Shown here: one piece after another, positions 31,442 to 31,882 of the stretch | How positions within the stretch are numbered: position 1 is the stretch's first letter | How the letters are laid out: each line of letters begins with the position of its first letter | Origin: Escherichia coli | GTDB taxonomy: Bacteria; Pseudomonadota; Gammaproteobacteria; Enterobacterales; Enterobacteriaceae | Length of the DNA: 64,000 bases | Reading direction: 5' to 3' (one strand) | NCBI RefSeq assembly: GCF_003334255.1 | Contig: NZ_QOWU01000004.1 | The notes under the pieces: model-generated | What the model was told of the DNA's origin: nothing | Databases searched by the model: none | What the model saw: only the letters and a program-made list of their open reading frames with translations | Made by a program: the position numbers and the translations under genes

Positions 31442-31882
31442 ATGAAACGACTTCTGATTCTTACGGCACTCCTGCCGTTTGTCGGCTTTGCACAGCCCAT
31501 TAATACTCTGAACAACCCTAACCAGCCGGGGTATCAGATACCCAGCCAGCAGCGGATGCAAACCCAGATGCAGACTCAGCAAATCCAGCAAAAAGGGATG
31601 CTGAATCAGCAACTGAAAACGCAAACTCAGTTGCAACAGCAGCATTTAGAAAACCAGATAAACAATAATTCTCAGCGGGTGTTGCAGTCACAGCCGGGGG
31701 AGCGAAATCCCGCCCGGCAGCAAATGCTGCCCAACACCAACGGCGGGATGTTAAACAGCAACCGTAATCCGGATAGTTCGTTGAATCAGCAGCATATGCT
31801 GCCGGAGAGGAGAAACGGCGACATGCTGAATCAGCCCAGCACGCCGCAGCCTGACATTCCGTTGAAAACTATTGGGCCGTAA
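31442..31882 (+). CDS. yhhA: Gln/Asn-rich secreted protein of unknown function
   Basis: 146-aa ORF with signal peptide ([17 protein letters not shown]) then low-complexity Q/N-rich sequence. Confidence 0.85.

Follow-up and report, generated by a model that had tools for sequence, protein, structure and literature searches.

The 64,000-nucleotide stretch of Escherichia coli DNA analysed here (contig NZ_QOWU01000004.1 of assembly GCF_003334255.1, hereafter the window) carries an open reading frame (ORF) of 146 codons that opens with ATG at 31442, ends at 31882 on the + strand, and lies downstream of the divergent gene ggt and tail to tail with ugpQ. This ORF is yhhA of E. coli K-12, an already annotated gene of the DUF2756/PRK10350 family. 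The DNA is 100% identical at yhhA in K-12-type genomes, where the RefSeq label reads 'yhhA: DUF2756 family protein'; Pfam DUF2756 (PF10956) matches residues 1-105 of the product (~14.7 kDa) with an E-value of 1.1e-60, and NCBIfam PRK10350 (NF007675) matches it over its full length, residues 1-146, with 265 bits against a cut-off of 136. Profile matches and RefSeq label agree that the name yhhA, already used in the initial annotation of this DNA, is correct. Two aspects are new here, namely a residue-level constraint on the predicted glutamine-rich helix of an exported protein, and a reciprocal pair of conserved, terminator-like hairpins that yhhA and ugpQ carry for each other. These results extend existing knowledge and overturn none of it.

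The glutamine-rich core and the tail of YhhA

With 29 glutamines and 18 asparagines among its 146 residues, YhhA stands apart from its neighbours. The mature protein consists of 21.9% Gln, 14.1% Asn, 10.9% Pro and 5.5% Gly, contains no Cys and a single aromatic residue, and has an isoelectric point (pI) of 10.4 and a grand average of hydropathy (GRAVY) of -1.4. Gln and Asn together peak at 36 in the 80-residue window spanning residues 21-100, and the corresponding peak lies between 31 and 38 in all 80 orthologues. The 70 long, mechanically called ORFs of the window have a median Gln plus Asn content of 7.9% and a 95th percentile of 13%; since yhhA tops this list with 32%, its composition is far from typical among them. 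The initial annotation had called such a make-up unusual for a periplasmic protein; the yardstick used here is the set of ORFs in the window. The basic character is shared by the family, with a net charge of +1 to +6 and a pI of 8.8-12 in 80/80 orthologues. Met makes up 4.4-10.3% of the mature orthologues (median 7.3%), and 1-3% in several distant members.

The initial annotation had portrayed the product as almost entirely Q/N-rich, built of repeated MQTQ, LKTQTQ and QQQ units, and typical in composition of disordered or prion-like proteins. The richness in Gln and Asn is real, but the wording overstated it, as the two residues account for about 36% of the mature protein. The short motifs do recur, but not as tandem repeats. 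Tandem Repeats Finder returned zero tandem repeats on the yhhA DNA, and what recurs there are direct repeats, short and dispersed, together with a tail unit of about 24 residues that occurs twice, at a spacing of 72-75 nt; the notion of repeat units at the DNA level was dropped, as only short motif recurrences were left. Composition also points to disorder, the mature protein as a whole falling on the unfolded side of a charge-hydropathy plot, and the tail (residues 83-146) indeed looks disordered. Residues 34-82, by contrast, are conserved by position and predicted to be helical. Conservation of the low-complexity region in orthologues had been left for verification, and the Gln-rich region proved to be conserved.

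The strength of this conservation is best appreciated residue by residue. Across 81 distinct Enterobacteriaceae orthologues, Q37, R38, Q40, M43, Q47, M53, L54, Q56, Q61, Q65, Q67 and Q72 are invariant, while Q46, Q49 and Q66 are retained in 80/81. The stretch from PSQQR to QPG is free of gaps in 24 of 26 sequences of an alignment between genera that spans the family. Within Escherichia, residues 34-82 show a nonsynonymous divergence (dN) of 0.008 against a synonymous divergence (dS) of 0.5-1.8, that is a dN/dS of about 0.01, and a codon alignment of E. coli with E. whittamii over residues 30-90 reveals 21 differing codons, two of which alter the amino acid. Such a low dN beside a high dS, with so few nonsynonymous codons, argues that selection acts on the amino acids of this segment one by one. 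By these sequence comparisons the Gln-rich half is the most constrained part of a gene whose overall dN/dS, computed by the Nei-Gojobori method against ten orthologues, amounts to 0.04-0.17.

Synonymous divergence within Escherichia is itself uneven along yhhA. The high dS of the helix-coding part goes with frequent switching between CAA and CAG, and the tail has a dS of 0.16-0.22; all these estimates are noisy, being drawn from few sites. A direct repeat of 37 nt with 70% identity (31523-31559 and 31691-31727) encodes two 12-residue segments 56 codons apart, one in each half of the gene, which may be the trace of an old internal duplication common to the helix half and the tail half.

AlphaFold2, run with the family alignment, models residues 34-82 as one helix of 49 residues, with a predicted local distance difference test (pLDDT) score of 89-92 for the block 41-70, and gives the tail, residues 83-146, a pLDDT below 50. 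On this model, residues 34-82 most likely form one long polar alpha-helix, which may present a Gln-based polar interface. A profile of the family found no relative with a solved structure among PDB sequences (best E-value 0.28).

The tail evolves under a looser regime. Several of its segments are gapped in about 40% of orthologues, its length varies, the orthologues range from 121 to 158 residues, and distant family members consist of the helix domain only. Short motifs around Met-Leu (QQ.LPN, GGML, QHML and NG.ML) are nevertheless retained in 75-80 of the 81 orthologues; they read QQMLPN, GGMLN, QHMLP and NGDMLN in E. coli.

Length also varies within the species. E. coli alleles of 96-165 residues, from isolates and metagenomes, are found in protein databases; they arise from in-frame duplications of 9-17 residues or deletions of 10-50 residues, in the helix or in the tail, with breakpoints at brief recurring motifs (QTQ or QQQH, for example). 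Slippage thus occurs in yhhA and is tolerated at least briefly; the pattern between species shows that such length variants do not persist. Among complete E. coli genomes, 22 of 5425 records fall at 90-95% identity and 3 below 80% coverage, so that length alleles look rare there, as judged from identity and coverage bands and not from allele counts. One metagenomic allele of 165 residues in ENA combines an N-terminal helix portion like that of another genus (QNQMQVQQQQHQSMLKQDMQSQTRAQQQHLQTQL) with E. coli sequence, and could be either a recombinant or an assembly chimera. A deletion in strain A16 (NZ_CP028758.1), isolated from an otter, cuts yhhA and ugpQ short at their 3' ends (locus 3093-3909); both genes are annotated there as pseudogenes, and ugpE and ugpA are frameshifted too.

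The N-terminus announces an exported protein. By inspection, on which the call rests, it comprises an MKR n-region, a hydrophobic core of 13 residues and the sequence G-F-A ahead of Q18, with small residues at positions -3 and -1 of the predicted cleavage site and an A17 that is nearly invariant in orthologues. The signal peptide noticed in the initial annotation therefore has the features of the Sec type. Cys is absent from all 80 orthologues and with it any lipobox, hence YhhA is not a lipoprotein. From the signal peptide and published proteomics we infer that YhhA resides in the periplasm.

Table 1. Features of the yhhA locus, in positions of the window
Feature	Position	Strand	Basis
yhhA coding sequence, 146 codons and stop, DUF2756	31442..31882	+	ORF list, Pfam, NCBIfam, RefSeq, dN/dS 0.04-0.17
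Gln-rich conserved core, residues 34-82, predicted single alpha-helix	31541..31687	+	AlphaFold2, ungapped alignment, invariant residues, dN/dS ~0.01
C-terminal tail, residues 83-146, Pro/Asn/Met-rich, predicted disordered	31688..31879	+	pLDDT <50, gaps in orthologues
Signal peptide, residues 1-17, predicted signal peptidase I cleavage before Q18	31442..31492	+	Read from sequence
Overlap of yhhA (+) and ugpQ (-) 3' ends, 14 bp, CTATTGGGCCGTAA	31869..31882		ORF list, RefSeq
Hairpin (31929-31962) followed by UUUAUUGA, candidate intrinsic terminator of yhhA	31929..31969	+	Inside ugpQ codons 215-229
Hairpin with weak U-rich tail, candidate ugp operon terminator	31818..31847	-	Inside yhhA codons 126-136
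ugpQ, glycerophosphodiester phosphodiesterase, last gene of the ugp operon, convergent to yhhA	31869..32612	-	ORF list, RefSeq
Strong Shine-Dalgarno sequence GAGGAGGA, 6 nt before ATG	31428..31435	+	Sequence; GGAG conserved in 16 genera
Invariant TAAACTTAA, candidate sigma-S-type -10 element of yhhA	31407..31415	+	16-genus alignment, 26 nt before ATG

Genomic setting and the overlap with ugpQ

yhhA is a core gene of the Enterobacteriaceae, with distant members in the Erwiniaceae, and its family is a narrow one. Of 5426 complete E. coli genomes searched by megablast, 5425 carry the 551-bp region, in every case on the chromosome. The scan of one genome per species yielded 80 yhhA loci, in Escherichia, Citrobacter, Enterobacter, Buttiauxella, Kosakonia, Phytobacter and Cedecea, in Atlantibacter, Leclercia, Lelliottia and Trabulsiella, and in others; the remotest named members belong to Erwinia psidii, another Erwinia and Apirhabdus. 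DUF2756 comprises 65 representatives at 50% identity among 1.84 billion proteins, a set in which a single-sequence search retrieved nothing beyond the family. Profile searches of 5.8 billion proteins gave 467-625 matches, all DUF2756, and no fused domains occurred among the 625. DUF2756 was also the sole family matched in a Pfam scan of YhhA, and an Rfam scan of positions 31000-32700 produced a chance match only (RRE, E-value 0.65).

The gene order ggt-yhhA-ugpQ is kept in 78 of the 80 loci. In a family as narrow as this one, shared gene order is largely a matter of vertical descent and says little in favour of a functional link. In Erwinia psidii (locus 2680-3750), ggt is separated from yhhA by an effector gene of AvrPphF/HopF type and by a gene for a CesT-type chaperone, in an otherwise conserved order, with 92 bp between yhhA and ugpQ; one distant metagenomic member adjoins an Mla-type operon instead.

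The 14-bp overlap with the 3' end of convergent ugpQ, reported in the initial annotation, is borne out by the coordinates and by the RefSeq annotation of K-12-type genomes, which gives both genes an identical overlap. Most of the 79 species loci that have both genes overlap tail to tail, by 4-23 bp. The commonest arrangement is an overlap of 4 bp in which the two stop codons interlock, and overlaps of 11, 14, 17, 20 and 23 bp occur too; about ten loci have a gap of 5-96 bp instead.

Past the overlap, a hairpin of 14 pairs on the yhhA strand lies about 47 nt beyond the yhhA stop codon, within ugpQ, with a folding free energy (dG) of -25 kcal/mol and a z-score of -4.6. The nine pairs of its lower stem persist in 69-75 of 75 distinct sequences, and 85.7% of cells are paired, against 30-45% when the partners are slid. 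The covariation score of 0.093, compared with 0.072 in shuffles, was matched by none of 500 shuffles. Synonymous choice in ugpQ is restrained at the same place: P218 is encoded by CCC in 74/79 sequences, in contrast to P242, which is CCC in 1/70, R226 is CGC in 71/74, and the third position of L225 is G or A only. Variants in the stem are mostly G-U wobbles, which stay paired in the yhhA-sense RNA and become A-C mismatches in the ugpQ-sense RNA (about 25 versus 2). The synonymous constraint on ugpQ and these strand-specific wobbles point to an RNA hairpin selected on the yhhA strand, most simply as the terminator of yhhA.

The ugp operon would have its counterpart within yhhA. A terminator scan detected a hairpin of 13 pairs just past the ugpQ stop codon (dG -21.6 kcal/mol, z-score -3.6), shared with Pseudescherichia and, with a better U-tract, with Citrobacter, Kosakonia and other Escherichia; the U-tract is much better in Citrobacter. 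Its constraint on the DNA may account in part for the conserved NGDML/STPQ motifs and the low dS of the YhhA tail. The terminators of an excludon lie inside the partner unit, and so do both hairpins, each of them conserved, here as predictions and not as mapped transcript ends. If both terminate transcription, each transcript would end in the partner gene and the two mRNAs would overlap over about 150 nt (31818-31970), forming an antisense pair of the excludon type.

On the other side of yhhA, a simple sigma-70 scan of the promoter region found nothing. The invariant TAAACTTAA resembles an extended -10 element of sigma-S type, a likeness that serves as a lead and not as a test. It is proposed as a candidate promoter from cross-genus conservation together with a published peak of the RpoS holoenzyme in the ggt/yhhA spacer, obtained in vitro by systematic evolution of ligands by exponential enrichment (SELEX) (PMC5493296). 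The spacer also holds TAAGCCTGGT (31356-31366), nearly invariant in the 16 genera, which could be the site of a shared regulator or a promoter element of ggt. Annotation starts ggt at a Met (MIKPTF) at 31322, and the ORF list extends it to a TTG at 31349. Between the annotated start and the conserved spacer block, a GGGG-loop-CCCC hairpin (31343-31355) would form in the ggt transcript on the - strand; the 16 genera retain it, although the loop varies and the stem shows some changes, and it may be a structure of the ggt leader. A further SELEX peak, 3585866, placed between yhhA and ugpC in a table headed constitutive promoters for the flagella sigma factor (PMC5493296), falls inside ugpQ (~31869-32612 in the window), the gene that separates yhhA from the adjoining ugpC.

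Expression and possible role of YhhA

The initial annotation had left the expression of yhhA to be confirmed, and the literature documents it for both transcripts and protein. yhhA is listed among the RpoS-regulon genes induced after a shift to cold (PMC4057180), increases 2.5-fold along with rpoS at a growth transition (PMC2241611) and 5.6-fold upon treatment with a LolCDE inhibitor (PMC5105897), responds mildly to acid (PMC2270276, PMC7824302), and figures as a hub among the genes upregulated under several stresses (PMC9501238). The protein was quantified in the Salmonella proteome (PMC4265081) and in E. coli producing extended-spectrum beta-lactamase (PMC9927464). It ranks in the top 15 by abundance in heat (surface) extracts of Shiga toxin-producing E. 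coli, together with HdeB, YmgD, ZraP, SodC and Ivy, and the authors ascribed the top proteins of these extracts to leaked periplasm (PMC9731836). By these reports yhhA belongs to the RpoS/general-stress set.

Taken as a whole, the explanation that we favour with moderate confidence is that of an exported stress protein, composed of a helix and a disordered tail, whose gene forms an excludon-type pair with ugpQ. YhhA would be exported to the periplasm by the Sec pathway. A lone helix of 49 residues is unlikely to be stable and would call for a partner or for self-association. The protein might then bind envelope components or unfolded proteins and protect them under stress, independently of ATP. 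Such a role for a cationic periplasmic protein is put forward with low confidence, on the analogy with Asr and with proteins of the Spy/CpxP type. Bolder, and quite unlikely in our estimate, is the idea that YhhA founds an undescribed class of periplasmic stress proteins built on an invariant, polar, Gln-lined helix that could assemble in zipper fashion into oligomers, on an envelope polymer or on client proteins, perhaps with a switch between helix and aggregate under stress. If true, it would offer a natural Gln-based assembly module outside the cytoplasm.

Several observations weigh against the favoured explanation. No experiment and no homology gives YhhA a function, and the charge-hydropathy criteria predict disorder for the entire mature protein. 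The canonical heptad of a coiled coil was not found in the helix, the best register having hydrophobic residues at 5 of 14 a/d positions, and YhhA is not classed among coiled-coil proteins. The helical periodicity of conservation was not significant (p = 0.33), despite a highly conserved stripe formed by Q36, Q40, Q47, L54, L58, Q65, Q72 and N76. Two copies joined by a Gly-Ser linker showed no confident packing in AlphaFold2 (pLDDT 53, predicted template modelling score 0.32), a weak negative from a crude construct for which no contacts or predicted aligned errors were reported. Because of the poor heptads, the lack of periodicity and the low-confidence two-copy model, self-association of the helix is unsupported by the modelling. 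The length alleles show that in-frame changes in the helix are tolerated at least briefly. As for the pairing with ugpQ, a U-tract of at least 5/8 follows the yhhA-strand hairpin in 28 of 79 species only, and part of the hairpin conservation could stem from the conserved ugpQ peptide PQR...RWG.

The same data could be read in other ways. A very hydrophilic protein that the charge-hydropathy plot counts as disordered, with a tail of pLDDT below 50 and an induction by stress and in stationary phase, might be a fully disordered hydrophilic shield, of the hydrophilin or late embryogenesis abundant (LEA) type, acting by bulk water retention, crowding and charge. The 11-residue spacing of L58, L69 and V80 even recalls the 11-mers of LEA proteins, as a lead only. 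A bulk property, however, leaves both the invariant residues and the fixed length of segment 34-82 across genera unexplained, and the Gly content of mature YhhA lies just below the threshold that defines hydrophilins, which also counts against a shield. On balance we hold this alternative to be unlikely.

Composition alone would suggest a secreted, prion-like or amyloid protein, engaged in self-templating aggregation or in condensates, either in the periplasm or outside the cell. Its 36 Gln and Asn in the best 80 residues, and at least 31 in 80/80 orthologues, exceed the compositional threshold of 30 per 80 residues, and the GRAVY of -1.4 and the disordered placement in the charge-hydropathy plot fit as well. 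We nevertheless judge it very unlikely. Individual Gln residues are invariant, without gaps and with a dN/dS of about 0.01, so that conservation concerns position and not composition; the Gln-rich region is confidently predicted by AlphaFold2 as a helix; the mature protein has 11% Pro and charged residues spread throughout; and Pfam gave no match to an amyloid family of any kind, curlin repeats included.

Methionine opens another avenue, that of a Met-rich periplasmic binder of copper or silver, or of a sacrificial sink protecting against oxidants, which strikes us as highly improbable. The median Met content of the orthologues (7.3%, range 4.4-10.3%), the invariance of M43 and M53, the near invariance of M39, M103, M119 and M128 and the mostly conserved H68 and H118 would agree with it. 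Several distant members nevertheless contain only 1-3% Met, Pfam gave no match to known metal-binding families, and the papers that were found on yhhA report no induction by copper, silver or hypochlorite. Its Met residues, moreover, occur as ML dipeptides rather than in His/Met patterns like those of SilE and PcoE, and this too counts against metal binding.

To the proposal that antisense regulation between yhhA and ugpQ is the selected function and the protein secondary, we give very little credence, even though most species keep the two genes overlapping tail to tail, the hairpins embedded in them show conservation and the pair has been published as a convergent excludon (PMC12288877). YhhA is abundant as a protein (PMC9731836). 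Purifying selection on amino acids is strong along the whole of yhhA while synonymous sites vary freely, and the protein is still kept in Erwinia and in some Buttiauxella and Cedecea, where a gap of 31-96 bp parts the two genes.

That YhhA is a type III secretion effector of enteropathogenic E. coli (EPEC) is scarcely credible for a protein with a classical cleavable Sec signal peptide at its N-terminus, encoded at a fixed chromosomal locus in many environmental genera of Enterobacteriaceae and in 5425/5426 E. coli genomes, including K-12 types, which are not known to have the type III system of the locus of enterocyte effacement. The idea comes from a preprint statement (bioRxiv 10.1101/364117), and the source behind its claim of a 'validated EPEC effector' did not turn up in a literature search; the seven S/TQ and four QS/QT dipeptides of YhhA could be quoted in its favour, but S/TQ dipeptides are expected by chance at 22% Gln, and effector identity was rejected in view of the Sec signal and of the near-universal, non-pathogen distribution.

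An exported stress protein with a conserved helix thus remains our preferred reading of yhhA, a conserved and well-expressed E. coli gene without a function. It is unusual for selection to fix nearly every Gln of a Gln-rich stretch in a protein that works outside the cytoplasm, and explaining this would bring insight into how enterobacteria protect their envelope in stationary phase. YhhA would further illustrate that a Gln-rich segment in nature can be structured as a helix and need not be disordered or prion-like. The pair it forms with ugpQ offers a compact case in which each coding sequence would carry the terminator of its partner, with the constraint visible at synonymous sites.

Comparison with known systems

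YhhA is the founding member of DUF2756 (PF10956)/PRK10350, and nothing in the profile match or in the RefSeq name, which agree, sets the present sequence apart. Membership says nothing about mechanism, as the family has no assigned function.

The transcriptional overlap of yhhA and ugpQ is already known, the pair being listed by ExcludonFinder among the 165 convergent excludons of strain MG1655 from RNA-seq coverage (PMC12288877). That work concerns overlap as deduced from coverage only; the present analysis places both predicted hairpins inside the partner gene and adds the cross-genus conservation of a hairpin, as seen through the synonymous constraint on ugpQ.

With prion-like domains and the curli subunit CsgA, YhhA has in common a high content of Gln and Asn (36/80), and CsgA demonstrates that Q/N-rich proteins can cross the periplasm. 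YhhA differs from them by its position-specific conservation, its predicted helix, its many prolines and the absence of adjoining genes for curli-type secretion. A Pfam scan found no curlin repeats in YhhA, tandem repeats are likewise absent, and the protein does not belong with the curli-type amyloids.

Spy, CpxP and ZraP (the LTXXQ family) are likewise small, cationic, alpha-helical periplasmic proteins induced by envelope stress, and YhhA shares with them many spacings of the form hydrophobic-x-x-Q. The LTXXQ family was absent from the Pfam matches of YhhA up to an E-value of 10, and the predicted long helix and tail of YhhA differ from the helical hairpin that forms the cradle of these proteins, so that the likeness is one of analogy only.

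The closest functional analogy for a protective binder would be Asr. Asr is rich in Lys, Ala and His and is induced by acid through PhoBR; YhhA, unlike Asr, is rich in Gln, Asn and Met, linked to RpoS and endowed with a strongly conserved predicted helix. The two have no detectable sequence relation, and a chaperone activity of YhhA would be proposed by analogy only. Asr has been described as a periplasmic, intrinsically disordered chaperone of acid shock in E. coli (Ren et al. 2022, as cited in PMC10746267). Both proteins are small, Sec-exported, cationic, of low complexity, free of Cys, induced by stress, periplasmic and confined to enterobacteria.

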